From Bacillota bacterium (GTDB taxonomy: Bacteria > Bacillota > Clostridia > Christensenellales > CAG-138), in the NCBI GenBank assembly GCA_023458355.1, contig JAEWZS010000082.1, positions 1 to 46,385 of the forward strand: 46,385 nucleotides of DNA. The letters are read 5' to 3'. The notes under the pieces are model-generated. The model did not search any database, was not told the DNA's origin, and saw only the letters and a list, made by a program, of their open reading frames with translations. The stretch's first letter is position 1; each line of letters begins with the position of its first letter. Of the stretch, positions 1-44,093 are shown piece by piece. Position numbers and translations under genes: made by a program.

Positions 1-1640
1 TCGGCATGGTTGCGCAAAGCGGCTATTTAAACATCGCGGTAGCCAACAGCGCGCGCGATCTTGGGTTCAGCCTCATGGTATCCACCGGTAATGAAATGGT
101 TGTGGACAGCACCGAGGTAATGGAGTACATGCTCGATGACCCGAATACCGATGTGATCATGGCCTTCATCGAGCAGATCCGCCGCCCTGATGCATTTAAA
201 GCCGTTGCGCTTCGAGCTATGGAACTTCATAAACCAATCGTGCTCATTAAGGTAGGCCGCTCGGAAATGGCGCAGCGCGCGACGACCGCACACACCGGTG
301 CACTTGCCGGTTCCGATGCCATTCAAGACAAGCTGTTCCAAAAGCTTGGTGTCATCCGTGTGGATGATTTTGACGAGATGTTTGAAACAGCTGAGCTTTT
401 ATCCAAGCTTAAAGGGAAGCTGCCCAAGGGGAACGGCATTTTTGCAGTTACGCTTTCAGGCGGAGTTATCAGCCTTATGGCGGACGTGGGCGAAAACATG
501 AGCCTGCGTTTTCCACAATGGTCTCAGACGGGTATGGCTGAGGTGCAAGAACAGCTCATGACATTCTCCCACATTGCAAACCCATTGGATGCCTGGGGTT
601 CGGGCCGCATCGAAGACACGTATGCCCCCTGCCTCTCTATCGCGGCTGCTGAAAAGGAATGCGATTTTCTCCTTGTGGTGCAAGACGTACCTGCCGGCAT
701 GGCCGATTCTCAGGTGCAGCAATACGCTATTGTCGCAAACGCCACCGCGGAAGCGGCACGTTTGTCGGGCAAGCCGACGGCACTTCTCACCAACATTTCA
801 ACAGGCGTTCACCCCGATATCCAAGCCATTCTTGACAGTGCAAACGTACCAACGCTTCGGGGAACTCGCGCCGGGCTCAAAGCCATCGACAACACAATTC
901 GCTACGCAGACGCCCTTATGGCACCTGCCTATGTAGAAAACACGAAGAAACACTCTCTTAAATTATCGCCTTCCCTCGGGAAAGCTCTCACCGAGTACCA
1001 AAGCAAGAAGGTGCTCGAAGACTTTTCTATCTCCTGTACGAGGGAAATTCTTGCCCCAGATCCGGATGCGTGCGCAGCTGCAGCGCGGGAAATCGGTTAT
1101 CCCGTTGTGCTTAAGGTAATGTCGCCGCAGATTTTACATAAAACCGAGGCCAAGGTGATTGCCGTTGGCCTTAAGGATGAAGCCGAGGTACGTGAGGCCT
1201 ATCCGCGTTTAATGGAAAATGCCCTACGCTTCGCGCGAAACGCTCAAATCGAAGGCATGCTGGTTCAGGAAATGGCGAGAAAACCTGTTGCCGAGGTGAT
1301 TATAGGCATTACACGCGATCCGCAGTTTGGGCCCGCCGTGGTTTACGGTACAGGCGGCATACTGGTAGAGGTGCTTAAAGACAGCACCTTAGGCATTCCG
1401 CCTCTGACCGAAGAGGAAGCCCTTAAAATGATCCGATCCACCAAGGGTTACCGCTTGCTGACGGGCTTCCGCGGCCGTGAAAAGGCGGATGTGCAAGCGC
1501 TCGCAAAAACACTGGTTCAAGTAGGCCGTTTGGCGGCCGAATGTGGGGATGAAGTCGCAGCGCTCGATATTAACCCTCTTCTCGTATATGAGGAAGGCAT
1601 GGGAGTGCTTGCGGTAGATGCCCTTTTGGAATTGCGGTAA
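1..1640 (+). CDS. ADP-forming acyl-CoA synthetase (acetate--CoA ligase family, fused alpha/beta); 5' end cut by the window edge
   Basis: The reading frame of ORF 6..1640 stays open to position 1. It has a succinyl-CoA-synthetase-like CoA-ligase part (TAHTGALAGSD) followed by a C-terminal ATP-grasp part (YPVVLKVMSPQILHKTE ... DINPLLV). The stop lies 23 nt before iorA. Confidence 0.85.
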   Translation, partial: GMVAQSGYLNIAVANSARDLGFSLMVSTGNEMVVDSTEVMEYMLDDPNTDVIMAFIEQIRRPDAFKAVALRAMELHKPIVLIKVGRSEMAQRATTAHTGALAGSDAIQDKLFQKLGVIRVDDFDEMFETAELLSKLKGKLPKGNGIFAVTLSGGVISLMADVGENMSLRFPQWSQTGMAEVQEQLMTFSHIANPLDAWGSGRIEDTYAPCLSIAAAEKECDFLLVVQDVPAGMADSQVQQYAIVANATAEAARLSGKPTALLTNISTGVHPDIQAILDSANVPTLRGTRAGLKAIDNTIRYADALMAPAYVENTKKHSLKLSPSLGKALTEYQSKKVLEDFSISCTREILAPDPDACAAAAREIGYPVVLKVMSPQILHKTEAKVIAVGLKDEAEVREAYPRLMENALRFARNAQIEGMLVQEMARKPVAEVIIGITRDPQFGPAVVYGTGGILVEVLKDSTLGIPPLTEEEALKMIRSTKGYRLLTGFRGREKADVQALAKTLVQVGRLAAECGDEVAALDINPLLVYEEGMGVLAVDALLELR

Positions 1641-1663
1641 GGGTACCGAATAAAACATAACAG

Positions 1664-3463
1664 ATGGAGGAATTTTCCTTGAAACAATTATTGTCTGGTA
1701 ACGAAGCGATTGCACGGGGCGCATATGAAGCCGGCGTGCAGGTGGTTACCGGTTATCCTGGGACACCGAGCTCCGAAATCGTAGAAACAGTCGCCTCCTT
1801 ATATGGCGACGAGGTTTATGTGGAATGGTCGACCAATGAAAAGGTAGCGATGGACGCTGCAGCCGGTGCTGCATACAGCGGAAAACGTGCCATGGTCACC
1901 ACCAAGCAGGTCGGCATGAATGTGCTGATGGACTCTATGCTTTACACCGTTTACACCGGCGTCGAGGCCGGGCTTGTAGTGGTTACGGCCGACGACCCGG
2001 GCCTGTTCAGCTCGCAAAACGAGCAGGACAACCGTTGGTATTCGCGCCTTGCAAAAATCCCCACGTTTGAGCCCGCCGATAGCCAAGAAACGAAAGATTT
2101 CATCAAACTGGCTTTTGAGCTGTCCGAAAAGTTCGATACCTCTACGCTGCTTAGAAGCGTTATGCGTATTTCACACTGCAAGAGCGTTGTAGAAACCGCT
2201 CCGCGCGTAGAAAACCCGCTTAAGCTCGAAAAATTTCCACGCAACATCCCGAAATACAACTGCACGGCGATGTATGCAAAGATCATGCACCAAGAGCTCG
2301 AAGAGAAAATCAAAAAGATCGCCGAATATGCTGAAACCATGGATATCAACCGCATCGAGTGGGGTGACAGGTCTTTGGGCATCATCACAAGCGGCATCGT
2401 GTACCAATACGTCAAAGAAGTGTTCCCCAATGCTTCTGTACTCAAGCTTGGCATGACATATCCGCTTCCCCAAAATCTCATTAAAACCTTTGCACAGGGT
2501 GTAGACAAGGTACTTGTGGTAGAGGAATTGGATCCTGTACTCGAAGAGCAAATTAAGTCCATGGGCGTAGAAGTAACCGGTAAGGAACTCTTCCCTCCGT
2601 TCTTCGAATTGCTGCCCGATCGCTTGATGGATATCGCCCTCAAAAACGGTTTGCTCACAAGCGATACGCGCGAAAAGACGGAGCCCGCAGCAAAACTGCC
2701 CGAACGCTCCCCCGTTCTTTGCGCAGGTTGCCCGCACCGTTCCACGTACACTGTATTAGCTAAGTTAGGATTGCCGGTTGCCGGTGATATCGGCTGCTAC
2801 AACCTCGGCGCACAGCCTCCGTTCCACGCGCAGCACACCATGGGAGCTATGGGCGCAAGTATCGGCGTTCTGCACGGCATGTCCATCGCCGGGCTTCCGG
2901 AAAACCGTGTCTGCACCATCGGCGATTCAACATTTTTCCATTCAGGGCTTTCGCCGCTGGCCAATATGGTACATAATGAAAGCCGCGGTGTTGTTATTCT
3001 CATGGATAACTACACAACGGCCATGACCGGCCACCAGGACCATCCGGGTACAGATTATAAGGTGCTGCGTACCAACAAGGCTCGCAAAATCGCAATCGAA
3101 CCCCTGGTACGCGCACTCGGCGTAGAGATGGTGAAAAGCGTTGATGCATTCAATCTCAAAGAGGTTGAAGAAGGCCTTAAGGAGTGCCTTGCGTTCGACG
3201 GCCCGTCGGTATTGATCACAAAAGGCGCTTGCGTCCAAATCAATAAAACTGCAAGCCCAATCTACCACGTCAAAACAGATACCTGCATCGCCTGCCATAA
3301 GTGCTTCCAGGTAGGCTGCCCCGCCATTATGGTATCCGATGAAGAAAACCCCAAGACACATAAAAAGAAATGCCGCATCGATCCTACCTTGTGTAACGGC
3401 TGCGGGATATGCTCTCAGGTCTGCCCCACAAAGGCGATCTCGAGGAAGGAGGATGCGCAATGA
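1664..3463 (+). CDS. iorA: Indolepyruvate:ferredoxin oxidoreductase, alpha subunit (2-oxoacid:ferredoxin oxidoreductase, TPP and 2x[4Fe-4S])
   Basis: The N-terminus LKQLLSGNEAIARGAYEAGVQVVTGYPGTPSSEI is IorA-typical. A TPP-binding GDSTFFHSG motif is present. The C-terminus carries two ferredoxin Cys clusters (CIACHKCFQVGCP, CNGCGICSQVCP). The ATG at 1664 has no SD. The in-frame TTG at 1679 sits 7 nt after GGAGGA (1666-1671) and may be the true start. Confidence 0.9.
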   Translation: MEEFSLKQLLSGNEAIARGAYEAGVQVVTGYPGTPSSEIVETVASLYGDEVYVEWSTNEKVAMDAAAGAAYSGKRAMVTTKQVGMNVLMDSMLYTVYTGVEAGLVVVTADDPGLFSSQNEQDNRWYSRLAKIPTFEPADSQETKDFIKLAFELSEKFDTSTLLRSVMRISHCKSVVETAPRVENPLKLEKFPRNIPKYNCTAMYAKIMHQELEEKIKKIAEYAETMDINRIEWGDRSLGIITSGIVYQYVKEVFPNASVLKLGMTYPLPQNLIKTFAQGVDKVLVVEELDPVLEEQIKSMGVEVTGKELFPPFFELLPDRLMDIALKNGLLTSDTREKTEPAAKLPERSPVLCAGCPHRSTYTVLAKLGLPVAGDIGCYNLGAQPPFHAQHTMGAMGASIGVLHGMSIAGLPENRVCTIGDSTFFHSGLSPLANMVHNESRGVVILMDNYTTAMTGHQDHPGTDYKVLRTNKARKIAIEPLVRALGVEMVKSVDAFNLKEVEEGLKECLAFDGPSVLITKGACVQINKTASPIYHVKTDTCIACHKCFQVGCPAIMVSDEENPKTHKKKCRIDPTLCNGCGICSQVCPTKAISRKEDAQ

Positions 3464-4044
3464 AAAACAGCGTTAATTTCTTAATCGTCGGCGTAGGCGG
3501 CCAGGGTACCATTCTTGTGAGCGATATTCTGTCTGAGGTCGGCATGCTTTCAGGGCTTGATGCCAAAAAATCCGATATTATGGGTCTCGCCATCCGCGGC
3601 GGAAGCGTTTCGAGCCATGTCCGCTGGGCGAAGCGCGTTGGGTCGCCTATGAACATGATAGGCACGGTAGATTATCTCATGGCTTCCGAGCCTCTTGAAG
3701 CGCTTCGCGCGACAGAGTATTTAAAAAAGGAAAGCACTGTCATCTACAACGAATACCCCCTGCAACCGATGCTTGTGAGCACGGGCAAGGCGGAGTATCC
3801 CGATAACGACACAATAAACGAGATGCTTTCTAAGGTATCTACCAAGGTCATCCATTACGATGCTACCAAAAAAGCACAAGAAATCGGCAACGTGAAGGTT
3901 ATGAACATCGTGCTTCTCGGTACATTGTCCAAAATGTTCCCCGAAATAGGGCCTGATGTATGGGAAACGGCTATCCGTAACCATGTTCCTTCAAAATTGC
4001 AGGAGCTTAACATTAAGGCCTTCCATGTTGGAAGGGAGATGTAA
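3460..4044 (+). CDS. iorB: Indolepyruvate:ferredoxin oxidoreductase, beta subunit
   Basis: MKNSVNFLIVGVGGQGTILVSDIL is the typical IorB/OFOR-gamma-like N-terminus. The ATG at 3460 overlaps the iorA TGA (ATGA), and the GGAAGGAGG RBS lies inside the iorA end. The ORF-track start at 3409 is probably too long. Confidence 0.9.
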   Translation: MKNSVNFLIVGVGGQGTILVSDILSEVGMLSGLDAKKSDIMGLAIRGGSVSSHVRWAKRVGSPMNMIGTVDYLMASEPLEALRATEYLKKESTVIYNEYPLQPMLVSTGKAEYPDNDTINEMLSKVSTKVIHYDATKKAQEIGNVKVMNIVLLGTLSKMFPEIGPDVWETAIRNHVPSKLQELNIKAFHVGREM

Positions 4045-4051
4045 TATAATA

Positions 4052-4792
4052 ATGAAGATAATGGTCATCAACCCGAACTCTTCTGTCACCATGACTGAGC
4101 ACCTTGGAAAGGTACTCAATCAGATTAAGAACAGCGGCACGGAGCTAAGTGTTGTATGCCCTAAGGGCGGTCCTCAGGCGATTGAAAGCGCCTATGACGA
4201 AGCTCTGTGTGTCCCCGGTGTACTTAAGCTTGTTGAAAAGGCAAACACTGAAGGCTACGACGCCATCATCATCGCCTGCTTCAGCGACCCGGGCCTTGAG
4301 GCTTGCAGGGAGATTTCAAACATTCTCGTAACGGGCATTGAGGAAATCGGCCTCCATGTTGCAGCCATGATGGGTGCTAAGTTCACCATTCTCACCATGA
4401 ACCGCGAGCGTGTGCCGGCCAAAGAAAAGGAAGGCCGCCGTTATAAGCTCGAACACAGCATGGCATCTGTTCGCCCGCTTGGCATGAGTGTTGCTGAAAC
4501 GGACAGCGAGCCCGATCGGGCACGTGAGAGGATTCGCAGCTTAGCAAAGCAGGCCGCAGAGGAAGACGGAGCCGAAGTTATCGTTCTTGGCTGCGCCGGA
4601 ATGGCCGGTTATGCCGAGGGTATCACCGAGGAGCTGGGCATCACTGTGATCGACCCCTCCTCCGTAGCGCTCAAGGTGACCGAGGCGCTTGTGGCGGCAA
4701 ATGTAAGTCATGCAAAATGTGCCTTCTATGCCATCCCGCCCAGCATTCGCCGCGCAGCTGAGAATAATAAAGACTGCAGCCTTTGTGGCTGA
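4052..4792 (+). CDS. Asp/Glu/hydantoin racemase family protein (hydantoin or allantoin racemase-like)
   Basis: MKIMVINPNSS is the N-terminus. Two catalytic-Cys motifs typical of HyuE/HpxA-type racemases are present (IIIACFSDPGLEA and VIVLGCAGMAGYA). The ATG at 4052 is preceded by GGAAGGGAG and lies only 7 nt after the iorB stop. Confidence 0.85.
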   Translation: MKIMVINPNSSVTMTEHLGKVLNQIKNSGTELSVVCPKGGPQAIESAYDEALCVPGVLKLVEKANTEGYDAIIIACFSDPGLEACREISNILVTGIEEIGLHVAAMMGAKFTILTMNRERVPAKEKEGRRYKLEHSMASVRPLGMSVAETDSEPDRARERIRSLAKQAAEEDGAEVIVLGCAGMAGYAEGITEELGITVIDPSSVALKVTEALVAANVSHAKCAFYAIPPSIRRAAENNKDCSLCG

Positions 4793-4806
4793 AGGAGTAG
4801 CGCAAG

Positions 4807-5601
4807 TTGAACAAAAAACCGGACAAGTCGGAGGTCGCATCGCTCGATAAGGCGATACAAATACTCCAATACCTTACACAGCTCGATAAAGACATCAGTC
4901 TTAAAGACCTGTCAGCCGGGGTGAACATGCCAAAGGCAACGCTCATCCGCCTGCTCACCACCATGAAACGTCATGGTTTAATTCAGCAGGATGTGGCAAC
5001 GAAAAATTACCGTCTTGGTTGGGCGCTCATCTATATGGGCACGGCGGCCTCCCGCTTGTTCGATTTACCAAAGATTATCCACCCGTACCTGGAACGATTG
5101 TCGCGCGAATCCGGAGAAAGTGCTTCGCTCGTGCAGTTTCAACGCGATTCTGCGGTATATGTTGACCAGGTTTCCTGTACCAATCTTATCCGAAGCGGGC
5201 TTGGTGTAGGTGCACAACTGCAAATACACCTTTCCGCTGCCGGAAAAATTCTTATAAGCGATATGCCTGATGAGGCTATCAGGAAGTTTATAAAGCGCAA
5301 CCCGCTTATAAAGCGTACCGAAAAGACCATCACCAGTGAGGAAGCATTCCTTCGCGAAATCCATAGTGTACGCGAAAACGGCTATGCGCTTGACGATGAG
5401 GAAGGTGAAATCGGAGGGCGCTGCATCGCAGCTCCTATAAAGGATTGGAACGACAACATACTTGCTTCCATTTCCATCACCGGCCCATCAAGCCGCGTTC
5501 ATAAAGAAACCATGCCAAGGCTAATCGAGCTTGTGTGCGAAGTTGCCAGCATGGCTTCTGACGAGCTTAAATGCGGCAGTCGTCAAAATACAACGAATTA
5601 G
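4807..5601 (+). CDS. IclR-family transcriptional regulator
   Basis: N-terminal wHTH (SLDKAIQILQYL ... LSAGVNMPKATLIRLLTTM) plus a C-terminal IclR effector domain (GYALDDEEGEIGGRCIAAPI). The TTG start at 4807 lies 9 nt after AAGGAG (4792-4797). Confidence 0.85.
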   Translation: MNKKPDKSEVASLDKAIQILQYLTQLDKDISLKDLSAGVNMPKATLIRLLTTMKRHGLIQQDVATKNYRLGWALIYMGTAASRLFDLPKIIHPYLERLSRESGESASLVQFQRDSAVYVDQVSCTNLIRSGLGVGAQLQIHLSAAGKILISDMPDEAIRKFIKRNPLIKRTEKTITSEEAFLREIHSVRENGYALDDEEGEIGGRCIAAPIKDWNDNILASISITGPSSRVHKETMPRLIELVCEVASMASDELKCGSRQNTTN

Positions 5602-5639
5602 AGTGCAAACCTTCATATTATATAAGGAGAAGTTTTCCA

Positions 5640-6566
5640 ATGGATTTCAAAGGCCTGGATATTTTAAACGGCTATCAGTTTACCAACCAACAGCTCAACC
5701 ACATTATGAACACCGCTGCGCAGTATGAAAAGCGCGTCAAGGAGGGTGAGGTCATCCGCGACCTCGAAGGCCTTGTCGTTGCGACACTCTTCTTTGAGCC
5801 GTCCACGCGCACACGTCTATCCTTTGAAGCGGCTATCAATCGCACGGGTGCTAAGGTCATCAGCATGGCTGATGCCAAGGCATCCTCTTCTGCAAAAGGC
5901 GAAACCATGCAGGATACCATCAGAACAATAGACGGTTATGTGGATGCCATCGTCATGCGTCACCCGGAAAAGGGCTCCGCGAAAGAAGCGGCTGATATTG
6001 CCGAGCATCCGGTCATCAATGGCGGCGACGGTGCGGGCCAGCATCCCACACAGGCGCTTTTAGACATCTATACAATGCGCAAGGAGAAAGGCCACATCGG
6101 AGGCCAGACGATTACCTTCTTGGGTGATCTTAAATACGGCCGCACGGTGCACTCTTTAGGTTACCTCATGCAGCAGCTCGGTAACAAAATGATATTCGCC
6201 TCCCCCGATACGCTGAAAATGCCCGAAGAGATTACAAGCGACCTTCGTTCCCGCAGTGCTGACATCACGGAAACAAGCGACGTGCGCGAGGCTCTCTCCC
6301 AATCGGACTTTGTATATGTTACCCGTGTGCAGCGCGAACGTTTTTCTGACATTGCAGAGTATGAACAGTGCAAGGGCAGCTACATAATAAACCGTGAGCT
6401 TTTAAAGGCGGCAAAGCCTGCAATCACAATTTTGCATCCCCTGCCCCGTGTCGATGAAATCGCAACGGATGTAGACGACTATGAAGGTGCCGCCTATTTC
6501 CGCCAGGCCCATAACGGCATGTACCTGCGCATGGCGCTTCTAGGCCTTGTAACAGGCAGGGTATAA
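5640..6566 (+). CDS. pyrB: Aspartate carbamoyltransferase catalytic-chain-like protein (ATCase/OTCase superfamily)
   Basis: Carbamoyl-P motifs STRTR and HPTQ are present. Aspartate-site motifs GDLKYGRTVHS, TRVQRERF and HPLPR are also present; HPLPR is the ATCase signature, not the OTCase HCLP. The ATG at 5640 follows AAGGAGAAG. No pyrI lies next to it. Confidence 0.85.
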   Translation: MDFKGLDILNGYQFTNQQLNHIMNTAAQYEKRVKEGEVIRDLEGLVVATLFFEPSTRTRLSFEAAINRTGAKVISMADAKASSSAKGETMQDTIRTIDGYVDAIVMRHPEKGSAKEAADIAEHPVINGGDGAGQHPTQALLDIYTMRKEKGHIGGQTITFLGDLKYGRTVHSLGYLMQQLGNKMIFASPDTLKMPEEITSDLRSRSADITETSDVREALSQSDFVYVTRVQRERFSDIAEYEQCKGSYIINRELLKAAKPAITILHPLPRVDEIATDVDDYEGAAYFRQAHNGMYLRMALLGLVTGRV

Positions 6567-6581
6567 AGAAAAATAACGTTT

Positions 6582-6642
6582 GCCGGGCAGCGGGGTTTGC
6601 GTGTTCGTCATCCCCGACGCAGGGCAGGTTTCGCTGCTTGGC
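6582..6642 (+). promoter_or_regulatory. Structured intercistronic RNA element (long imperfect stem-loop, possible attenuator, terminator or processing site)
   Basis: The outer arms GCCGGGCAGCG (6582-6592) and CGCTGCTTGGC (6632-6642) can pair over 11 bp including 2 G-U. They enclose inner GGGG/CCCC and TGCGT/ACGCA pairings and are followed by ATTTATTA. The element lies in the 142-nt gap between two otherwise tightly packed genes. Confidence 0.3.
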
Positions 6643-6708
6643 ATTTATTAAAGGCCGTTGTTTACACATACGGCCGCTAAAATTACCATTCAAGGAGGCA
6701 ATTTTCGT

Positions 6709-8106
6709 ATGTTGTGGGACCATGTTGTAAAGGGTGGAATGCTTGTAAGCGCAAGCGACGTATATGAGGCAGATATTTATATAAAAGACGGTAAAATTGC
6801 AGCAGTCACCAAGGAAGACCTGGGTGAAGCGCGTGAGACGACTGATGCGCGAGGCAAATATGTTTTACCCGGCTTTATTGATACACACGCTCACTCCCGT
6901 GACGGTTTTAAAGGTGCGCACCAAAAGGAGGATTTTTTCCATTCCTCGCGTGCAGGTGCCGTGAGCGGAATCACCACCATTTATGAAATGCCCAACTGCA
7001 ACCCTGCTATTTACAATGTGGACCGCATGAACGACCTGATTGAATGCATCACACCCAAGGCGCATGTGGACTTCGGCATTTGGGGCCTATGCCTTGGCGA
7101 TCTCAACAACCACGAACTTAAAGCTTTGGCTGACGCCGGCGTCGTAGGTTTTAAATTTTTCTGGGGATATGCCATTGACGCTAAGGAATACCAGCTTATC
7201 TACAACTTCCGCGAAGGCATGACGGATGTAATTCCCCCGCTAGATGAAGGACAAATCTATAAAATATTCCGTGAGGTAGCAAAGACAGGTAAAATGGTCG
7301 GCATACACGCGGAAAATTTTGATATCATCAATGTTTTGACCAAAGAAGTCATGGAAAGCGGCGATACGAGCTATGCGGCCATGCTGCGTTCCCGCCCGTC
7401 ATTTTCGGAAACCACCATCATCGAAACGGCGATTTCCATTGCAAAGGAGCTCGGGACGCACCTCCATATTTTGCATCTTGCAGCAGGCGACGGCGTAGAC
7501 CTTATCCGCGATGCGCAAGCAAAAGGTATAAACGTGACGGGAGAAACCTGCCCGCAATACCTTGCGCTTACCGATGAGGATGCGGCTCAACTTGGCGCCA
7601 TGATCAAAGGCTATCCCCCCGTACGTACCAAGTATGACCAGGATAAGCTTTGGAATGGCCTTTTAGACGGTACGCTTTCCTTTGTTTGCTCCGACCACGC
7701 CCCTCACATGGAAGCCGAAAAGAAGCGCAGCCTCTGGGAAGCACCCGCAGGCGGAGCAACCATTGAAACCATGAGCCTTGTGTTAATCGACGCGGTGAAT
7801 AGAGGCAAAATATCCATCAACAAGCTTGTAGAGATTTTGAGCGAGCAGCCTGCGCGCATGTTTAACACATATCCCGAGAAAGGATCCCTCCTGCCCGGAA
7901 CGGATGCGGATATTGTTGTGTTGGATATGGAGCAGGAATTCGTGTTCCATCAGGAGCAAATGCAGTCTCGCACCAAGCTCTCGCCCTATGACAAGCGTAC
8001 ATTCAAGGGTAAACCCGTTAAGACAATTCTGCGCGGGCATACCATGGCGGAAAACGGTGCCATCGTGAGCGAGCCTTACGGTAAGTTTATCCGTCCCAAA
8101 AAATAA
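6709..8106 (+). CDS. Cyclic amidohydrolase (dihydroorotase / allantoinase / hydantoinase family), 465 aa
   Basis: Metal ligands are present: DTHAHS (HxH), GFKFF (carboxylated Lys), GIHAEN, HILHL and SDHAPH. The SDHAPHMEAEKK segment resembles type-I dihydroorotase TDHAPH..EEK. The length and the insertion after the KFF strand resemble allantoinase/hydantoinase. The ATG at 6709 follows AAGGAGG (6692-6698). Confidence 0.85.
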   Translation: MLWDHVVKGGMLVSASDVYEADIYIKDGKIAAVTKEDLGEARETTDARGKYVLPGFIDTHAHSRDGFKGAHQKEDFFHSSRAGAVSGITTIYEMPNCNPAIYNVDRMNDLIECITPKAHVDFGIWGLCLGDLNNHELKALADAGVVGFKFFWGYAIDAKEYQLIYNFREGMTDVIPPLDEGQIYKIFREVAKTGKMVGIHAENFDIINVLTKEVMESGDTSYAAMLRSRPSFSETTIIETAISIAKELGTHLHILHLAAGDGVDLIRDAQAKGINVTGETCPQYLALTDEDAAQLGAMIKGYPPVRTKYDQDKLWNGLLDGTLSFVCSDHAPHMEAEKKRSLWEAPAGGATIETMSLVLIDAVNRGKISINKLVEILSEQPARMFNTYPEKGSLLPGTDADIVVLDMEQEFVFHQEQMQSRTKLSPYDKRTFKGKPVKTILRGHTMAENGAIVSEPYGKFIRPKK

Positions 8107-8115
8107 AGCCTTTCT

Positions 8116-8135
8116 GCGTACCTTTATAGGTACGC
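8116..8135 (+). terminator. Perfect 8-bp hairpin after the amidohydrolase gene (weak or partial terminator)
   Basis: GCGTACCT-TTAT-AGGTACGC lies 10 nt after the stop. The downstream tail TCCGCTTATTG is only moderately T-rich. Confidence 0.3.
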
Positions 8136-8258
8136 TCCGCTTATTGTAGAAGTATCATTTTACAGCCTTGTACAGCAAGGTTTAAAAAAGTTGCAGCAAA
8201 GGGAACAAAATATCCCTGATGCTGCGAAAAAACATACAACATGAAGGGGGTATATATC

Positions 8259-9539
8259 ATGAAAGCATACTCTGAGATGTCAGCCGTCGAGCTTGACAGG
8301 GAATATCAAAAGGAAAAGGCTGCGTTTGACAGCTTCAAATCCAGGGGCATGAACCTCAACATGGCGCGCGGCAAGCCGGGCAAAGCGCAGCTTGACCTCG
8401 TTATGGATATGCTCACGAACCTAAAAACACCCGAGGACTGTATGGACGGCAACATCGATGCGCGTAACTACGGCACGCCGATGGGACTCCCCTGTGCGCG
8501 TACGTTCTGGGCCGATCTTCTCGGTGTAAAATATGAGCAGGTTTTTGCTGCGGGCAGCTCCAGCCTTACCCTTATGTACGATGTCATATCAAAGGCGTAT
8601 ACACATGGACTTTTAAACAGCGAAAAACCATGGAGCAAGCTTGATAAGGTAAAGTTCCTCTGTCCTTCGCCCGGTTACGACAGACATTTCCGTATTTGCC
8701 AAACCTTCGGCATGGAGATGATATACGTCCCCATGAATGAAGAAGGCCCGGATATGGATGTTGTGGAAGAACTTATCAAGGACGAAAGCGTTAAGGGTAT
8801 TTGGTGTGTGCCGAAGTACTCAAACCCCGGCGGCGTTGTTTTCTCCGACGCTGTGATACACCGCATGGCGGCCATGAAGCCTAGAGCAAAAGACTTTGTC
8901 ATTATGTGGGATAACGCGTATTGCGTGCATGAATTTGAAGGCGATTTCGTACCCTTTGAGGATATTCTTACGCTATGTGAGCAAAACGGCAACCCGGATA
9001 TGGTCGTGGAATTCGCCTCTACGTCGAAAATCACGCTCCCCGGTGCAGGCATTGCAACCATGGTTATGAGCAAAGCGAATATGGATTATATGATGAAGCT
9101 TATCGACGTGCAGAGCATCAGCTATGACAAAATGAACCAGCTTCGCCATGTTAGATTCCTTAAGAACAAAGAGGGCGTTCTCGAGCTTATGAAAAAGCAT
9201 GCTGAGGTTTTAAAGCCGAAGTTTGACACCGTGCTCGACGCCTTTGAACAAGAGATTAAGCCGCTTGGTTTTGCTTCGTGGAACCGTCCAAAGGGTGGGT
9301 ACTTCGTATGCTTGTTCACCATGGAAGGCACAGCAAAGCGTGCGCTGAAGCTCTGCGAGGAGGCAGGCATCGTAATGACGCCGGCCGGCGCAACCTTCCC
9401 GTATAACAACGACCCGCACGACAGCAACGTACGCGTCGCACCAACGCTGCCGTCACTCGAGGAGCTCAAATCCGCCATGGAAGGGATCTGCATCTGCTTA
9501 AAGCTTGCAGCGCTCGAGAAACTCCTCAAGAAAGCGTAA
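8259..9539 (+). CDS. PLP-dependent aminotransferase, class I/II fold (putative aspartate-aminotransferase-type family)
   Basis: The N-terminus MKAYSEMSAVELDREYQKEKAAFDSFKSRGMNLNMARGKPGKAQLDL, together with the FASTSKITLPGAGIA Lys motif, matches the approximately 420-aa clostridial putative Asp aminotransferase family as I remember it. The ATG at 8259 follows GAAGGGGG. Confidence 0.8.
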   Translation: MKAYSEMSAVELDREYQKEKAAFDSFKSRGMNLNMARGKPGKAQLDLVMDMLTNLKTPEDCMDGNIDARNYGTPMGLPCARTFWADLLGVKYEQVFAAGSSSLTLMYDVISKAYTHGLLNSEKPWSKLDKVKFLCPSPGYDRHFRICQTFGMEMIYVPMNEEGPDMDVVEELIKDESVKGIWCVPKYSNPGGVVFSDAVIHRMAAMKPRAKDFVIMWDNAYCVHEFEGDFVPFEDILTLCEQNGNPDMVVEFASTSKITLPGAGIATMVMSKANMDYMMKLIDVQSISYDKMNQLRHVRFLKNKEGVLELMKKHAEVLKPKFDTVLDAFEQEIKPLGFASWNRPKGGYFVCLFTMEGTAKRALKLCEEAGIVMTPAGATFPYNNDPHDSNVRVAPTLPSLEELKSAMEGICICLKLAALEKLLKKA

Positions 9540-9592
9540 AATCAATTTCGTTGCGGATGCTTCCTCCTGCATTCTAAACGATTCGGTACAAA

Positions 9593-9620
9593 GAGCCCGC
9601 CAAGAAGGCGGGCTTTTTGC
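9593..9620. terminator. Rho-independent terminator shared by convergent genes
   Basis: GAGCCCGCC-AAGAA-GGCGGGCT followed by TTTTTG. The A-containing left flank allows use from the minus strand as well. Confidence 0.7.
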
Positions 9621-9684: not shown

Positions 9685-10791
9685 TTAACCGCCATTTTGC
9701 AAATCCCGCATGAGCCGAGCGCCCATGACCGTTGCAGGGATTTTGTAGTCCGGCGCAAGGTTTGAAAGAATCACGACGCCGATTTGGTTTTCTTTATCAA
9801 AGGCAATATAGCTGTTATAGTTACCGGTACCCCCATTGTGCCATAAAATGCCGTTTTCTGTATCTATCATCCACCCAAGCCCTGCGCAGTCCATTCTTAT
9901 GCCCAAGCTCTCATAGGCAACATCAGTTGCATTAATTCTCTCTGTCTCTTCATGCCCCAAGTTAAGATACGGTAATGCGTCTGACATATGGAGATTTACA
10001 TACGCAAGCATATCGCTAATTGTAGATTCCAGCGCGCCTGCAGGGAGATACCCGTCATCTATTTCCCAGTCCCAATATCGCTTAAGTTCCCCCGCCCCAT
10101 CGGTTATTTTTGTGTTCCTTAGCTGCAATTCGGACCTTATAAAATCTTCAATCACATCTTTGTACGTGCCTCCGTAAACCTTAGATAGCGCATTTCCCAA
10201 GATAGACAGCCCGAAGTTTGAATATTCAAAGGGATAGGCTTTGTCTTCAAGATTATTCTCTTTGGCTTGCTCTATAAGCCTCTCAATGCTTATGCCATAG
10301 AAAGAATTACGCCCGGAGAAAAAGTTTGAAGCCATCTGCCAATCAAAATAATGTGCTTTATACCCGGAAGTATGTGTGGCGAGTTTTTTAAATGTAGGAT
10401 AGTAATTTTGCTGCGGTAAAGAAAGATATGCACCGACAGAATCGTTTAACTTCAACTTTCCTTCATAGATTGCTTTACACAATAAAGATGTAGTGAAGGT
10501 TTTCGTTGCAGAGCCGATTTCGTAGATGTACTCGTGCTGCGGCAATATAGTACCGTTTTTCCCGTAAACCGTATAACGCATTTGTCCGTCTTGTATAATG
10601 CCTACCGTTATGACTGCCTCTTTGTTCTCATCGGTCGTAAACGCAAGCATTTCTTCAAAACGCATACCGGGGATAAGGCTCATGCGATAGGAGCCGTATG
10701 CTGCATAGACACCTACACCAAGTACGATGATCATAACAAGTGCAACTGCAAGTAGGATGATTTTCTTCTTTCCCAATTTAGCTTTTTTCAT
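9685..10791 (-). CDS. Membrane-anchored serine hydrolase (beta-lactamase / PBP4*-like family)
   Basis: N-terminal Lys-rich segment plus a TM helix (KKIILLAVALVMIIVLGVGVYAAY), and the SxxK active-site motif in EIGSATKTFTT. Confidence 0.8.
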   Translation of the reverse strand: MKKAKLGKKKIILLAVALVMIIVLGVGVYAAYGSYRMSLIPGMRFEEMLAFTTDENKEAVITVGIIQDGQMRYTVYGKNGTILPQHEYIYEIGSATKTFTTSLLCKAIYEGKLKLNDSVGAYLSLPQQNYYPTFKKLATHTSGYKAHYFDWQMASNFFSGRNSFYGISIERLIEQAKENNLEDKAYPFEYSNFGLSILGNALSKVYGGTYKDVIEDFIRSELQLRNTKITDGAGELKRYWDWEIDDGYLPAGALESTISDMLAYVNLHMSDALPYLNLGHEETERINATDVAYESLGIRMDCAGLGWMIDTENGILWHNGGTGNYNSYIAFDKENQIGVVILSNLAPDYKIPATVMGARLMRDLQNGG

Positions 10792-10890
10792 AGCTTCTCC
10801 CTAATTCGTTATTACCCCTGTTGCGATATAGACAGATTCTATCATATCTTAAGCAAGGTCTAAAAGGAACTAGCATATTCGTAGAAATAC

Positions 10891-10917
10891 AGCAAAAGAA
10901 CCCGCGCGTGCGGGTCC
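10891..10917 (-). terminator. Rho-independent terminator after the GH1 gene
   Basis: On the minus strand: ACCCGC-ACGC-GCGGGT followed by TCTTTTGCT. Confidence 0.55.
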
Positions 10918-10934
10918 TTTAGTTATATAAGCTT

Positions 10935-12284
10935 TTATAGGTTCTCCCCGTTGCTCCGAATCACTTCAGCATACCATTTTGCAGAATCCTTTAAGATTCT
11001 TTGTTGGGTCGCGTAATCCACATACACCATGCCGAAGCGCTCGCTATAACCGGCAGCCCATTCGAAATTGTCTAAAAAGCTCCAATGGAGATAGCCTTTT
11101 ACCGGCACGCCGGCATCGATGCTCTTTTTCAGTTCCTTTAGATAACGGTGCAAAAAATCGATTCGGTCCGGGTCATGTACTTCGCCGTCTAAAAAGATGC
11201 GGTCGTTGCAGGATTGGCCGTTTTCTGTTATGTACATTGAGAGCCCGTAGCGACGATGTAAAAACATCGGTCCGTAATGCATTACCTCAGGTGTGACGCG
11301 CCACTTTATTGCAGTTAGGGGAAATCCCTCAGGGTACTTAACGATCGCGCCGCTTTCATCCGTACCTTCGCCCTGGTATACGTTTATACCGATGAAATCG
11401 GGCACTTCAAAAAGATCCAAATCGCTTTGCGGCAGTAAAGAAAGCGATTCCTTTAAGAAATCGGGTGCGCTTTCGTCATAGCGGCGGAAGATACAGCTAT
11501 CGAGGAAGGAATTGAACGTAAACGCCCAAGAGCCTTTTGAAAGGTCAAACGTGGTATGATACGAAGCATCCGTCGCCTCAGGCGTATCCGTAAGCGGATA
11601 GCATAGTCTTCCGCATGGCACTACGCCAATTTGAATGGGTATGGAGGTATTTTGACGAAGGGCTTTTGAAGCAATACCATGTGCAAGTACGAGGTTTTGC
11701 ATGCACGCCGCTTGATCGCGCTCAGAAAGCTTGAGCCCGGGTGCATGGATGCCGTTGCCGTAACCAAGCGCAACGATGCAAGCAGGCTCGTTGATTGTCA
11801 TATAGGTTTTTACGCGTCCGTTAAAGCGCTTGGCAAGCACAGCCGCATATTCTCCGAAGGCGACCGCAGTATCGCGATTAAGCCAACCACCCTTTCTTTG
11901 TAAAGCGCTCGGGAGATCCCAATGGTACAGCGTAACCCACGGCTCAATATTTCGCTTTAAGAGCGCATCTATAAGCCGGTCATAATAAGCAAGACCCGCT
12001 TCGTTAACCTCTCCGGTGCCCTGTGGCATAATGCGCGGCCAGCTTACAGAAAAGCGATAAGCCTGCATGTTGGTTTGCTGCATCAGCAGAACGTCTTCCT
12101 CGTAGCGGTGGTAACTGTCGCAGGCAACATCGCCCGTGTCATCGTTTATAACATGCCCTTTCCCTTTATCATGGCAAAAATCGTCCCAAATGCTCGGACC
12201 CTTTCCGTCTTTGTCCCATGCACCTTCGCATTGGTAGGATGCGCATGCCGTGCCCCACAAAAAACCTTTGGGAAATCCGCTCAT
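10935..12284 (-). CDS. GH1 beta-glucosidase
   Basis: FLWGTACASYQCEGAW N-terminus, acid/base TINEP and nucleophile YITENG motifs. The ATG overlaps the stop of the upstream GH94 gene (4-nt overlap, 12281-12284). Confidence 0.9.
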   Translation of the reverse strand: MSGFPKGFLWGTACASYQCEGAWDKDGKGPSIWDDFCHDKGKGHVINDDTGDVACDSYHRYEEDVLLMQQTNMQAYRFSVSWPRIMPQGTGEVNEAGLAYYDRLIDALLKRNIEPWVTLYHWDLPSALQRKGGWLNRDTAVAFGEYAAVLAKRFNGRVKTYMTINEPACIVALGYGNGIHAPGLKLSERDQAACMQNLVLAHGIASKALRQNTSIPIQIGVVPCGRLCYPLTDTPEATDASYHTTFDLSKGSWAFTFNSFLDSCIFRRYDESAPDFLKESLSLLPQSDLDLFEVPDFIGINVYQGEGTDESGAIVKYPEGFPLTAIKWRVTPEVMHYGPMFLHRRYGLSMYITENGQSCNDRIFLDGEVHDPDRIDFLHRYLKELKKSIDAGVPVKGYLHWSFLDNFEWAAGYSERFGMVYVDYATQQRILKDSAKWYAEVIRSNGENL

Positions 12285-14701: not shown

Positions 14702-14720
14702 TGTATATTGCTCCGTTTTC

Positions 14721-14760
14721 AAAAAATAGAAAGGCCGCGTAAGGAGGTGCGCGGCCTTTC
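14721..14760 (-). terminator. Strong GC-rich hairpin with a U-tract between GH3 and GH94 (intra-locus terminator or stabiliser)
   Basis: On the minus strand: GAAAGGCCGCGC-ACCTCCTTA-CGCGGCCTTTC followed by TATTTTTTG. It lies in the 70-nt gap 14702-14771. Confidence 0.65.
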
Positions 14761-14771
14761 TTTTCAAGCCG

Positions 14772-17042: not shown

Positions 17043-17065
17043 TGCTTTCTCTCCTTTAACGCGGT

Positions 17066-17902
17066 TTAGACCGTAGAAAGGTCCCAGGGCTCGTAAATTT
17101 TTGGCACGTCGTTGATGAGGCGCTTTGTGTATTCCGCCTTCGGGTGGAGTATCACTTCATCCGCAGTACCGGACTCCACAAACTTACCGCGCTCCATAAT
17201 ATACACGGAGTCAGAAATGTAGTAAGCAAGGCCAATGTCGTGTGTTATAAATATAATCGTCATGCCGATCTCATCGCGAAGCTGCAAAAGCATATCGAGT
17301 ATGGTTGCGCGCGAGCAGGCATCGATCATGGAAGTGGGCTCATCCGCTAAGAGGATTTTAGGCCGAAGCAAGAATACGCGCGCAATCATGAGGCGCTGCA
17401 TCTGTCCGCCCGACAGTTCAAACGGGTACTTATTGGTAAGCTCCGCAAACTTTAAGTTTACAAAGCAGCACGCCTCGGTCATCATCTCCACCTTTTTTTC
17501 GTAGGGAAGGTGACGGCCGCCGCGCATATGGATGCAATCCAACAGTACCGAGTCAATTTTATGAAAAACGTTATAGGACGAAAAAGGATCTTGGAATATG
17601 GCTTGTATGTTTTTCCAGTATTCCTTTCGTTTTGCCTGCGTGCTGATGTCGCGTTTTTTGCCTTGGAAATAGATATCACCCTCGGTGACGCTCGTAAGCC
17701 CCAAGAGCATTTTAGCAAGCGTTGTCTTACCCGAACCGCTTTCCCCTACGATGGAAATAAGCTCTCCCTCGCGGAAGCAAAAATTCACATGGTCAACTGC
17801 AAGGTTGCTTTTTTTACCTATGCCATAGACTTTCGTAACGCCTTCGCCGCTTAAGCAGAGCGGGCAACTTTCTACATCGATACGCTGTGCACACTTACTC
17901 AT
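17066..17902 (-). CDS. ABC transporter ATP-binding protein (Opp/Dpp family, OppF-like)
   Basis: Walker [10 protein letters not shown], signature LSGGQMQR and Walker [10 protein letters not shown]. There is an 8-nt overlap with the upstream ATPase gene. Confidence 0.9.
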
Positions 17903-18902
17903 TCTCGTATACCTCCCTCAGCTTATCAACGCCAATGATGCAGCGGTAAGCCCGGCCGTCGCCAAATTGCGTATACGATATGTTCGATACCATGCATTCG
18001 GGCTTCACATACTTGCAGCGCTCTGCGAATCTGCACCCAAACGGCGGCTTTTTGAGGTTTGGAGGCGTGCCTGGTATTGCGGCGAGCTTTACATCGCGCG
18101 TACCCTCCTCGGGGACGATAATGGAGCCCATAAGCCCCTTGGAGTACGGGTGTATGGGATCAAACACCATTTCCTTGGCTGTGCCCTGCTCCACGATTTG
18201 CCCTGCGTACATCACCATGATATCGTCGGTAACATTATAAAGAAGCGGCAGCTCATGGGTGATGAATATCATGGACTTGATGAAGCCCTTTTCCATAAGG
18301 TCGCGCAGCATTTTAATGACCATCTTTTGGCTTGTTACGTCGAGTGCACTCGACGGTTCGTCGGCGATGAGTACCTTGGGTTTTAAGATGGTGGAAATGG
18401 CGATTACGGTGCGCTGCTTCATGCCGCCCGATAACTCCACAGGAAAGCGGTAAAGCACGCTCTCGGGAAGTCCGAGTACTTTGAAGCGATCCTTAGCGAG
18501 CTCCAATATTTCTTTTTTTGTGGTTTTCGGCTGGTGCGCAAGTATCACATCCTCCACAAAGTGGAGGATCTTGCGTGTGGGGTTGAGCGCATTCATGGCC
18601 GCCTGCGGTATATAGGCTATTTCCGTGCCGAGAACGGATTTGCGTACGTCGTCCGGTTTCATGGCGGTAATGATCTTACCGTCCACAATGATTTCACCTT
18701 TGATGTAATGGAGCGGTGCAAAATAGTAACCCATGAGGCTCAATGCAAGCGTCGATTTACCGCAGCCGCTCTCGCCCGCAATCCCAAGTGATTTACCCTC
18801 CTCGATTTTGAGGGAGACGCCGTCTACGGCATAGATGTCCTCGTGGAAGCGGGTGATGTATTTGGTGGAGAGGTCTTTTACCTCAAGTAGTACGTTTCCC
18901 AT
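17895..18902 (-). CDS. ABC transporter ATP-binding protein (Opp/Dpp family, OppD-like, with a C-terminal oligopeptide-type extension)
   Basis: Walker [10 protein letters not shown], signature LSGGMKQR and Walker [12 protein letters not shown]. The C-terminal HPYSKGL ... [11 protein letters not shown] matches the Opp-type C-terminal domain. Confidence 0.9.
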
Positions 18903-18912
18903 AACCGGCCTC

Positions 18913-20163: not shown

Positions 20164-20177
20164 AAATTCCGCCCTCC

Positions 20178-21182: not shown

Positions 21183-21260
21183 TGTTTCACCCCCGAATGA
21201 AGAAACAGCCATGTTTCTTACATGTATTGTCGAAACATGGCTGTTTCTCTTTCATACCTG

Positions 21261-23150: not shown

Positions 23151-23240
23151 GTCTATTCCTCCTGTTTGATGTTTTATCGTTATGGCCGCGAGTGCGGTCC
23201 ATAGCACAAAAGAAATCCGGGAAAGACTTGAACTTGAAAA

Positions 23241-24266: not shown

Positions 24267-24316
24267 GGTAAACATCCCCGATTACATCAAAAATGCGGCT
24301 CACGCCGAAATATCCG

Positions 24317-24334
24317 CAGTAAAACGTTTTCGTG
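24317..24334. promoter_or_regulatory. Operator-like palindrome 1 (LacI-family or cre-like)
   Basis: CAGTAAAACGTTTTCGTG has a perfect 10-bp palindrome core, AAAACGTTTT. It shares the 12-mer AAACGTTTTCGT with site 2. Confidence 0.45.
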
Positions 24335-24452
24335 AAAATTCCCGAATTTTTCCCATGTTTTTCGAATGTTACAAATGGTAATTTTAGCGATTGGACTTTA
24401 TAAAAACCTGACAGACCGAAAGGTCTCGAGGGAAAATGATTCTGCTTAATCT

Positions 24453-44073: not shown

Positions 44074-44093
44074 ATTCTTCTCCTTACAGTTTA

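Follow-up and report, generated by a model that had tools for sequence, protein, structure and literature searches.

A cluster of eight genes opens a 46,385-nt stretch of DNA (positions 1 to 46,385 of contig JAEWZS010000082.1, assembly GCA_023458355.1) from an uncultured, gut-type Christensenellales bacterium (Bacillota, Clostridia), to which we refer as the window. The cluster, at positions 1 to 9620, contains genes for an aspartate carbamoyltransferase (ATCase), a cyclic amidohydrolase and an aspartate aminotransferase (AAT), preceded by genes of 2-oxoacid oxidation. With slightly better than even confidence, we regard the locus as a catabolic composite of two conserved modules, which gains energy by degrading carbamoyl-aspartate derived from orotate or dihydroorotate and does not serve pyrimidine synthesis. 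We favour this reading because ATCase orthologues are linked to carbamate kinase (CK), because regulators, importers and molybdenum hydroxylases share their clusters, because genomes hold multiple ATCase copies with no carAB, pyrE, pyrF or PyrR element nearby, and because ATCase identity between families is high.

All eight open reading frames (ORFs) lie on the + strand. The gene order is ACS-IorA-IorB-racemase-IclR-ATCase-amidohydrolase-AAT, and the successive gaps are 23, -4, 7, 14, 38, 142 and 134 or 152 nt, the last depending on the AAT start. Families were called with Pfam and NCBIfam. The ORF list and RNA folding agree with the initial annotation, made from the letters alone, on the eight co-directional genes, the gap sizes and the terminator, and its family calls are all backed by these databases. 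The features are as follows.

1..1640, + strand: ADP-forming acyl-CoA synthetase (ACS), fused alpha-beta, 3' two-thirds only, with the N-terminus beyond the window edge (Pfam Succ_CoA_lig and ATP-grasp_5)
1664..3463, + strand: IorA, alpha subunit of an indolepyruvate-type 2-oxoacid:ferredoxin oxidoreductase (IOR), with a thiamine pyrophosphate (TPP) domain and two [4Fe-4S] clusters (TIGR03336, POR_N, TPP_enzyme_C, Fer4)
3460..4044, + strand: IorB, beta subunit, overlapping IorA by 4 nt (PF01558, POR/IorB)
4052..4792, + strand: HyuE/HpxA-type (hydantoin/allantoin) racemase-family protein (PF01177)
4807..5601, + strand: IclR-family transcription regulator, closing gene of the ACS-IOR-racemase module (HTH_IclR and IclR_C)
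5640..6566, + strand: ATCase catalytic chain (TIGR00670)
6567..6708, + strand: structured spacer with a long hairpin of about 25 bp, a second hairpin and a ribosome binding site (folding)
6709..8106, + strand: long-form dihydroorotase-type cyclic amidohydrolase, 465 aa (Amidohydro_1, all metal ligands)
8107..8258, + strand: structured spacer with four hairpins (folding)
8259..9539, + strand: AAT type Ic, Rv3722c-like (NF053594, PF12897)
9589..9619, + strand: intrinsic terminator, a 13-bp GC-rich stem followed by a U run, closing the cluster

The AAT frame is open from 8241, and the ATG at 8259, preceded by GAAGGGGG, is the more likely start. The eight genes are presumably co-transcribed. Beyond the terminator unrelated genes lie on the opposite strand (a beta-lactamase-like gene and a GH1 gene).

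The transcarbamylase and its genomic linkage

The ATCase passes two pyrB equivalog models, TIGR00670 (353.6 against a cutoff of 236.95) and NF002032 (324.6 against 263). Its top match among solved structures is the ATCase of Pyrococcus abyssi (322 bits); scores against the P. abyssi, plant, human CAD and E. coli enzymes run from 322 down to 250 bits, compared with 152 bits against the Bacillus type. The motifs STRTR, AKGE, MRHP, QHPTQ, KYGRTVHS, TRVQRERF and HPLPRVDEI are all present. The sites checked correspond to E. coli S52-T55, K84, R105, H134, Q137, R167, R229, Q231 and L267, which bind carbamoyl phosphate and aspartate. STRTR is identical in all 36 members of the family and the other motifs in 30 to 35 of them; the variants retain the listed catalytic residues, except for the His after R105. 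With its aspartate-site motifs complete, the protein is predicted to be a true aspartate carbamoyltransferase, and the full motif set together with the pyrB scores bears out the initial annotation, which had pointed to the aspartate-site residues. YgeW models gave 36-42 bits. Among the called or annotated genes of the ATCase loci examined there was no PyrI partner (no search was aimed at pyrI).

An ATCase scan with one genome per species gave 49 loci, from which a tblastn synteny table was built. Homologues are 75-95% identical across Christensenellaceae, Oscillospiraceae and Lachnospiraceae, and the 76% identity between Lachnospiraceae and Oscillospiraceae enzymes suggests a mobile accessory gene. 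To the PyrB of a member of the Bacilli (Saccharibacillus, L047) the window ATCase is 37% identical.

A CK gene lies directly upstream of the ATCase orthologue in 21 other species (GTDB species representatives). These CK genes pass the arcC equivalog (412-433 bits against a cutoff of 358), and the linked ATCases are 71-89% identical to that of the window, or 69% over the truncated copy of L040. The usual order is CK-ATCase-amidohydrolase with gaps of 40-70 nt. By analogy with known pathways, this adjacency would be the signature of phosphorolytic, ATP-yielding catabolism of ureides, and it lends weight to the idea of catabolic phosphorolysis put forward in the initial annotation.

IOR, ACS and racemase genes are missing from most CK-ATCase-amidohydrolase clusters. 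These clusters carry LysR, GntR or IclR regulators and importers of the Liv-type ABC or TRAP/SDF kinds. Clusters of this type also contain one or two three-subunit molybdenum hydroxylases, whose large subunit is 75-89% identical over eight Clostridial lineages (L007, L016, L018, L021, L023, L028, L045 and L048) and 49-50% identical in the Spirochaetes loci L041 and L043. This subunit scored 457 against XdhA, for which the cutoff is 780. The linkage suggests that the molybdenum hydroxylases feed heterocycles into carbamoyl-aspartate; imidazole-4-acetate, which might be converted to hydantoin-5-acetate, would be one speculative example. In a variant arrangement AAT and amidohydrolase genes are divergent from CK-ATCase. 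One Oscillibacter cluster (L008) combines AAT, amidohydrolase, CK, ATCase, LysR, PyrK, PyrD and an SDF transporter.

The MAG (metagenome-assembled genome) of the window has a second ATCase gene in the order ATCase-PyrK-PyrD (L010). This ATCase is 89% identical to that of the window, and its neighbour PyrD passes the dihydroorotate dehydrogenase (DHODH) equivalog (327 against 269). The initial annotation had allowed that the cluster might hold the only pyrB of the genome; for pyrB, the second copy removes this objection. In the MAG OH_HBB_203 a second cluster, GntR-ABC transporter-ATCase-PyrK-PyrD-SDF, starts 5.5 kb past the AAT of the eight-gene cluster, and its ATCase (87% identical) is 15 kb off on the same contig. 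Two or three near-identical ATCase copies were found per genome, as in L009 and L010 of one MAG and L013 and L015 of one contig. Several MAG contigs (L048-L057) begin inside the last 20-45 ATCase codons, and pairs from one MAG (L048/L049, L053/L055) continue into amidohydrolase(-AAT) on one side and PyrK-PyrD on the other. The near-identical paralogues appear to break assemblies, possibly via gene conversion.

No CarA, CarB, PyrE or PyrF homologue was found within 10 kb of the ATCase in any Clostridial locus. Rfam models detected no PyrR or other pyr-related RNA in the window or in eight loci; only a SAM and a purine riboswitch were detected among those loci. In Candidatus Pelethousia the purine riboswitch (L049, 8718-8815, - strand; 51.5 bits against 37) precedes a dihydropyrimidinase/HyuA-like amidohydrolase gene, about 6 kb from ATCase-PyrK-PyrD. 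A locus of the cultured Vescimonas sanitatis MH37-1 (L026, 685-18363) has a second PyrK/DHO_dh-like pair, a UbiX-like flavoprotein, a molybdenum hydroxylase trio and a TAXI-TRAP transporter with the ATCase; its order is ATCase-PyrK-MatE-PyrD-AAT, then purA and purB. The names of the cluster members gave no species link to Clostridium oroticum or Faecalicatena.

The complete eight-gene order recurs in OH_HBB_203 (L001) and in a JGI metagenome contig (L058) at 85-96% protein identity. The arrangement is thus kept in close relatives, a point on which the initial annotation had staked its reading. At the protein level L009, a contig of 7 kb from the MAG 'Bacillota bacterium OH_CDB_62', is 98-100% identical to the window. 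The upstream flank was judged from L001 and L058. The initial annotation had looked to a CK or a DHODH just upstream of the window; neither is there in these two relatives. Their ACS gene is preceded by a divergent set encoding a PCC-domain protein, a VOC-fold protein, a second Asp/Glu racemase-family protein and two pyridoxal phosphate (PLP) enzymes, with a binding protein in L058 only.

This divergent set is conserved over L001 1-3065, L058 1-4851 and L059 1-5061. One PLP enzyme is of fold-type III and weakly BhcC-like (136 bits against a cutoff of 690); the other has the PALP fold of the serine/threonine dehydratase family, with BhcB as a distant hit. The weak Bhc similarity hints at action on hydroxyaspartate, in which case the upstream set would also end in oxaloacetate.

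The spacer at 6567-6708 has a minimum free energy of -51.5 kcal/mol (z = -3.4 against shuffles) and that at 8107-8258 one of -45.5 kcal/mol (z = -6.2). The first, of 142 nt, is kept in L001 and L058. In CK-linked clusters the spacer between ATCase and amidohydrolase is 40-80 nt long and has no hairpins of the window type. The two hairpin spacers may be internal attenuators or mRNA stabilisers.

The amidohydrolase and the ACS-IOR-racemase module

The metal ligands of the amidohydrolase (HxH, carbamylated Lys, His, His, Asp) lie in the motifs DTHAHS, GFKFF, IHAEN, HILHL and SDHAPH, which are conserved across the family. It also carries the carboxylate triad Arg/Asn/His of dihydroorotase (DHOase) in HxHSR, EMPN and DHAPH, as do all its relatives and the canonical PyrC of L047. 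The triad positions (Arg after HxH, Asn of MPN and the second His of DHAPH) we take to be R20, N44 and H254 of E. coli DHOase. The triad is absent from L-hydantoinase 1gkr, D-hydantoinase 1nfg, allantoinase 3hm7 (HVHFNEPG, MPLN and SDHSPS at these positions) and the ErtD-like hydantoin-5-propionate amidohydrolase.

By whole-sequence score the top solved relative of the amidohydrolase is L-hydantoinase 1gkr (289 bits), from which it differs at the triad positions. The enzyme passes pyrC_multi, a subfamily_domain model (284 against 279), and is far under the cutoffs of all equivalog DHOase models. It scored 350.7 against the allantoinase model TIGR03178 (cutoff 357.85) and 292-295 against ErtD models (cutoffs 600-650). 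It is 70-77% identical to the amidohydrolases of CK-ATCase clusters and about 30% identical to the PyrC of L047. From these residues the enzyme is predicted to be of DHOase type, interconverting a carboxylated cyclic ureide and N-carbamoyl-L-aspartate. Its substrate is more probably L-dihydroorotate than 5-carboxymethylhydantoin, since the DHOase triad is present here and missing in the hydantoinases and allantoinase. The initial annotation had named both feedstocks; of these dihydroorotate/orotate is favoured over 5-carboxymethylhydantoin. The aminotransferase scored 592.3 against NF053594 (cutoff 435), and AAT orthologues accompany the ATCase/amidohydrolase pair in 15 loci.

Two further substrates were considered and dropped. 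In an allantoin reading the racemase would be HpxA-like, the amidohydrolase an allantoinase, IclR an AllR and the ATCase an oxamate transcarbamylase. It was ruled out because all aspartate-binding residues are kept, because the aminotransferase belongs to the aspartate type and because the amidohydrolase departs from the motif pattern of allantoinase. A route from N-carbamoyl-glutamate or hydantoin-5-propionate (glutamate to 2-oxoglutarate, succinyl-CoA and ATP) is attractive for ErtD/ErtE-like loci. For the window it was rejected on two grounds: the ATCase shares 87-89% identity with copies linked to DHODH, and the ErtD pattern is missing from the amidohydrolase.

The first five genes have a synteny of their own. 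In relatives the full-length ACS has 717-720 aa, and its gene opens the cluster in both L001 and L058; its nearest solved relatives are the ADP-forming 3-hydroxypropionate- and 4-hydroxybutyrate-CoA ligases and DddX. IorA passes the IOR_alpha equivalog TIGR03336 (674.8 bits against 650.9), and the top NCBIfam matches of IorB are IorB models, under cutoff (202 against 230). IorA is 57-96% identical across about 45 related loci and lies each time between ACS and IorB. The racemase scored 177.6 bits against PF01177 and matched best, among solved proteins, Klebsiella HpxA (3qvj, 153 bits). The Cys residues of its IIACFSDPG and VLGCAGM motifs align with C79 and C184 of HpxA, the residues mutated in 3qvk.

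An alignment of racemase homologues was used to scan metagenomes, and a second synteny table was made from the resulting loci, which come from sediments, groundwater and guts. In 48 of the 60 related loci of at least 6 kb the racemase gene (56-78% identity) directly follows IorB, behind ACS and IorA. About 50 metagenome contigs carry the ACS-IorA-IorB-racemase unit, and an aminotransferase gene usually accompanies it; this gene is of the branched-chain aminotransferase (BCAT)-like class IV in 16 loci and of class I in others. An IclR gene is 3' of the racemase in 22 loci. In L059, from the genome that also holds the CK-ATCase cluster L016, the module stands alone and ends in an IclR that is 50% identical. 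ACS-IorAB-racemase-IclR is a module in its own right to which the racemase belongs by synteny, as the 48 loci and the stand-alone L059 indicate. The neighbours of the module differ between loci along a common theme and include polar amino-acid ABC transporters, RidA, and TRZ/ATZ/SsnA-like, DUF6282 or creatininase-type cyclic amidohydrolases. The module would be a widespread unit leading from an amino acid through a 2-oxoacid and an acyl-CoA to ATP, the substrates of IOR, ACS and racemase being putative.

For the racemase the family call of the initial annotation stands and the position that its route implied does not, the gene being placed before IclR and beside IOR/ACS and not beside the amidohydrolase. 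Racemisation of a 5-substituted hydantoin by this protein would draw its support from gene context. In L122 (415-3774) a racemase orthologue comes directly after genes for an ErtD-like hydantoin-5-propionate amidohydrolase (538 bits against a cutoff of 650) and an ErtE-like carbamoylase, which makes up a hydantoinase/carbamoylase/racemase trio in an environmental anaerobe. The metagenome locus L130 (1-11777) has a hydantoinase-like gene, a racemase, a class III omega-aminotransferase, an ABC transporter, an OTC-type (ornithine carbamoyltransferase-type) transcarbamylase and a PreA-like dihydropyrimidine dehydrogenase. Its gene order resembles the reductive pyrimidine pathway, in which case beta-ureidopropionate might be cleaved phosphorolytically.

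The ACS-IOR-racemase module and the ATCase gene adjoin in at least four independent lineages, in differing arrangements. One is the group of the window, L001 and L058. In human-gut loci (L032, L033 and L068-78) aminotransferase-ACS-IorAB-racemase-GntR is convergent on CK-ATCase. The order is racemase-IclR-ATCase in L071 and L072 (ATCase 371 bits in L072), and BCAT-ACS-IorAB-racemase-...-IclR-ATCase in L103 (342 bits). In addition, L065 has a CK gene 3' of the racemase, and L060 and L123 have an OTC-type transcarbamylase in the place of the ATCase. L060 had been taken for a cross-phylum IclR-ATCase match and was dropped, its transcarbamylase being OTC-type and its IclR merely 27% identical. By a rough estimate, at least two of about 25 lineages would have both within 10 kb of each other by chance with a probability of a few per cent at most, and a functional link between the two modules is therefore likely. 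The initial annotation read the eight genes as one linear pathway. Its general design of racemase, cyclic amidohydrolase, decarbamoylating enzyme, aminotransferase, IOR and ACS recurs across metagenomes; the single indivisible unit does not hold, with the oxidative module alone in L059 and the CK clusters mostly free of IOR, ACS and racemase.

The proposed route and its alternatives

In the route that we propose, orotate would be reduced to L-dihydroorotate by the PyrK/PyrD reductase encoded beside the second ATCase copy. The amidohydrolase would open the ring to give N-carbamoyl-L-aspartate. The ATCase, which would work without a regulatory chain, would cleave this with phosphate to aspartate and carbamoyl phosphate, running in the phosphorolytic direction. 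A CK encoded elsewhere in the genome (adjacent in most relatives) would convert carbamoyl phosphate to ATP, CO2 and NH3, and AAT would convert aspartate to oxaloacetate. The substrate then oxidised by IOR and ACS would be oxaloacetate, pyruvate made from oxaloacetate, or an amino acid fermented alongside, with a second ATP and reduced ferredoxin as products. The ring substrate is a putative one, the steps from ATCase phosphorolysis through IOR and ACS are predicted ones, and that IOR takes oxaloacetate or pyruvate from aspartate is purely our conjecture.

The logic is, by analogy, that of known transcarbamylase/carbamate kinase pathways. In the arginine deiminase, agmatine deiminase and oxalurate pathways a ureido compound and phosphate give carbamoyl phosphate and then ATP by means of the catabolic OTCase, PTCase or OXTCase and CK; the energy logic here is the same, and the substrate would be N-carbamoyl-aspartate. 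In Clostridium oroticum, Lieberman and Kornberg reportedly described in the 1950s the conversion of orotate through dihydroorotate and ureidosuccinate to aspartate, CO2 and NH3, together with a 5-carboxymethylhydantoinase. The intermediates, a class 1B DHODH as orotate reductase, DHOase-type ring opening and the aspartate product are alike. However, the last step of the classical pathway is a hydrolytic ureidosuccinase that yields no ATP, whereas ATCase, with CK in relatives, would conserve energy. No gene assignment for the classical orotate fermentation was found in the literature.

Archaeal and clostridial amino-acid fermentation by an aminotransferase, IOR, VOR or KGOR and ADP-forming ACS gives one ATP per amino acid. 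The aminotransferase, IorAB and ADP-forming ACS are shared with the cluster, but here they come firmly linked to a gene of the hydantoin racemase family, in about 50 loci, and recurrently to an ATCase or other transcarbamylase. With the Hyu and the ergothioneine ErtD/ErtE systems the cluster shares the two-Cys racemase of HyuE/HpxA type, and the L122 orthologue lies behind ErtD-like and ErtE-like genes. Unlike those systems, the window has a transcarbamylase as decarbamoylating enzyme in place of an M20 carbamoylase, and its amidohydrolase has DHOase residues. In comparison with the de novo pyr operon (pyrB-pyrC-carAB-pyrK-pyrD-pyrF-pyrE in the Saccharibacillus locus), ATCase, DHOase and class 1B DHODH are homologous and their active sites intact, but the loci of the relatives have regulators, importers, CK, molybdenum hydroxylases and IOR/ACS in place of carAB, pyrE/F and PyrR.

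In the gut 2,8-dioxopurine (anaerobic uric acid) pathway, SsnA/HyuA ring opening is followed by the YgeW carbamoyltransferase and the YqeA carbamate kinase, which was shown to make ATP, and the carbamate kinase gene is sometimes elsewhere on the chromosome (bioRxiv 10.1101/2025.04.24.650524). The cyclic amidohydrolase, the phosphorolytic transcarbamylase, ATP formation by CK and the molybdenum hydroxylases and M20 peptidases of the clusters are alike. The differences are a true ATCase in place of the knotted YgeW, aspartate in place of diaminopropionate, and the attached AAT and IOR/ACS. In the literature searched, coverage of which was incomplete, we found analogous purine pathways only and no description of a catabolic ATCase or ATCase/CK cluster, nor any of the aminotransferase-ACS-IorAB-racemase module.

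Several points weigh against the energy-yielding route. The ATCase equilibrium favours synthesis, and to our knowledge no 2-oxoacid:ferredoxin oxidoreductase acts on oxaloacetate. The racemase has no role in the path from orotate to L-dihydroorotate. No CK was found in the 46-kb window (ORFs 42545-45305 unannotated) or upstream in L001 and L058. CK, AAT, ATCase, DHOase and DHODH together also make up an anabolic orotate route, if CK supplied carbamoyl phosphate. Genomic contexts count on the same side: ATCase alone or ATCase-amidohydrolase lies amid housekeeping genes in L061 and L062, and L003 has the anabolic-looking order ATCase-PyrK-PyrD-amidohydrolase. In the ATCase tree copies cluster by lineage and not by genomic context, with no distinct catabolic clade, and the amidohydrolase tree is a comb without a clean split; the phylogenetic placement proposed in the initial annotation thus separates no catabolic from anabolic clade for either enzyme.

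These last points are also what commends a biosynthetic reading, which we consider rather unlikely. Here 5640-9539 would be pyrB-pyrC-aspC leading from oxaloacetate to dihydroorotate, merely downstream of an unrelated amino-acid fermentation module, and in the relatives CK would, just as doubtfully, be a cheap source of carbamoyl phosphate, made from ambient CO2 and NH3. Intact ATCase and DHOase-type active sites with passes of pyrB and pyrC models fit it, as do the housekeeping members, the pyrB-pyrK-pyrD-pyrC-like order of L003, a phylogeny that tracks lineage, the solitary module of L059 and the run of L026 into AAT-purA-purB. It is weakened by the two or three ATCase copies per genome, by the lack of a PyrR element and of carAB, pyrE and pyrF nearby (and of pyrI in called genes, though no search was aimed at it), by the substrate-type regulators, importers and molybdenum hydroxylases in the same clusters, and by the ATCase homology between Lachnospiraceae and Oscillospiraceae with its hint of mobility. 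The ATCase gene is, moreover, co-oriented 38 nt behind IclR, and it adjoins the ACS-IOR-racemase module repeatedly, in the four lineages named. A hydantoin origin would give every gene a use, as the initial annotation had it: D/L-5-carboxymethylhydantoin is racemised, opened, phosphorolysed by ATCase and transaminated, and the keto acid passes through IOR and ACS. We think this exact route improbable. Both catalytic Cys residues of a HyuE/HpxA-type racemase, an L-hydantoinase as best solved relative of the amidohydrolase overall, and racemase orthologues beside the hydantoinase-like/carbamoylase-like pair of L122 and beside aminotransferase-ACS-IOR are consistent with it, and related clusters with two molybdenum hydroxylases might make hydantoin from imidazoles such as imidazole-4-acetate. 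However, the amidohydrolase has the DHOase triad that the ErtD-like hydantoinase, L-hydantoinase and allantoinase lack, and PyrK/PyrD linkage indicates orotate or dihydroorotate. The racemase is missing from most CK-ATCase-amidohydrolase clusters and accompanies IOR/ACS even with no ATCase or amidohydrolase near, and no natural source of carboxymethylhydantoin is established.

The two modules could also be paired in a Stickland-like manner, although we give this little credence. The oxidative module would convert a separate amino acid (branched-chain, aromatic or glutamate) to ATP and reduced ferredoxin, and orotate reduction with ATCase/CK would be the electron sink and source of a second ATP; the modules would, at the same low credence, be co-located for co-regulation, neither feeding the other. 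An aminotransferase that is BCAT-like or class I, and not aspartate-type, in most loci of the module is what such a pairing would lead one to see, and reduced ferredoxin from IOR, the class 1B DHODH genes beside the second ATCase copy and modules that are separable but repeatedly adjacent fit as well. On the other hand, L072 and L103, in which the module is followed by ATCase, show no PyrK/PyrD, the racemase is left unexplained, and no experimental precedent is known. Least probable by far is an aromatic 5-substituted hydantoin (benzyl- or indolylmethyl-), degraded via an N-carbamoyl aromatic amino acid, which the initial annotation had offered as its alternative feedstock. IorA passing the indolepyruvate oxidoreductase equivalog and a hydantoin-type racemase favour it. 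The ATCase active site, in which every aspartate-binding residue is kept, and the identity of the aminotransferase as AAT type Ic contradict it, as do the close likeness of the ATCase to DHODH-linked copies and the carboxylate-binding triad of the amidohydrolase.

Returning to the energy-yielding route, a broader proposal can be made with rather less than even confidence. ATCase in reverse may be the energy-conserving step of a widespread and undescribed anaerobic pathway from orotate or dihydroorotate to aspartate and ATP, with a possible heterocycle feed through molybdenum hydroxylases, wired to an undescribed aminotransferase-ACS-IorAB-racemase module that harvests further ATP from the liberated amino acid. 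Equally tentatively, this pathway would extend over gut, rumen and sediment Clostridia and Spirochaetes. If ATCase is indeed phosphorolytic together with CK, genes would be assigned to anaerobic orotate/ureidosuccinate fermentation, the chemistry of which has been known since the 1950s. Aspartate would join ornithine, putrescine, oxamate and the YgeW substrate in the list of ATP-yielding transcarbamylase/CK systems. The automatically annotated pyrB and pyrC of many gut and rumen Clostridia would then be catabolic, which would alter how metabolic models of these uncultured lineages treat pyrimidine auxotrophy and account for nitrogen and ATP. Ruminant milk is rich in orotate. The strongly conserved aminotransferase-ACS-IorAB-racemase module and the molybdenum hydroxylases tied to CK-ATCase would be further undescribed units.

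Other features of the window

The other 37 kb of the window are annotated except for three ORFs at 42545-45305, and contain genes for beta-glucoside/cellodextrin use, cell-envelope proteins, a LytTR two-component system and shikimate genes. No CK, pyr gene or molybdenum hydroxylase was found in this part (ORFs 42545-45305 not covered), and the window gave no Rfam match. A beta-glucan/cellodextrin locus extends over 9685-27089 on the opposite strand, with a GH1 beta-glucosidase, a GH94 phosphorylase, a GH3 enzyme, an Opp-type ABC transporter with a 648-aa binding protein, and LacI. The same stretch has a divergent GH2 beta-mannosidase-like gene, and a serine beta-lactamase/PBP-like gene lies ahead of the locus. 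An ORF of 1199 aa at 31818-35417 (- strand), whose sole recognised domain is Big_3_5, lies in the GC-richest stretch of the window (0.574 at 32-34 kb) and is probably a surface protein. At 39589-40347 (- strand) a fused chorismate mutase (CM_2) and shikimate kinase ORF is located among shikimate genes, including those for chorismate synthase and EPSP synthase.

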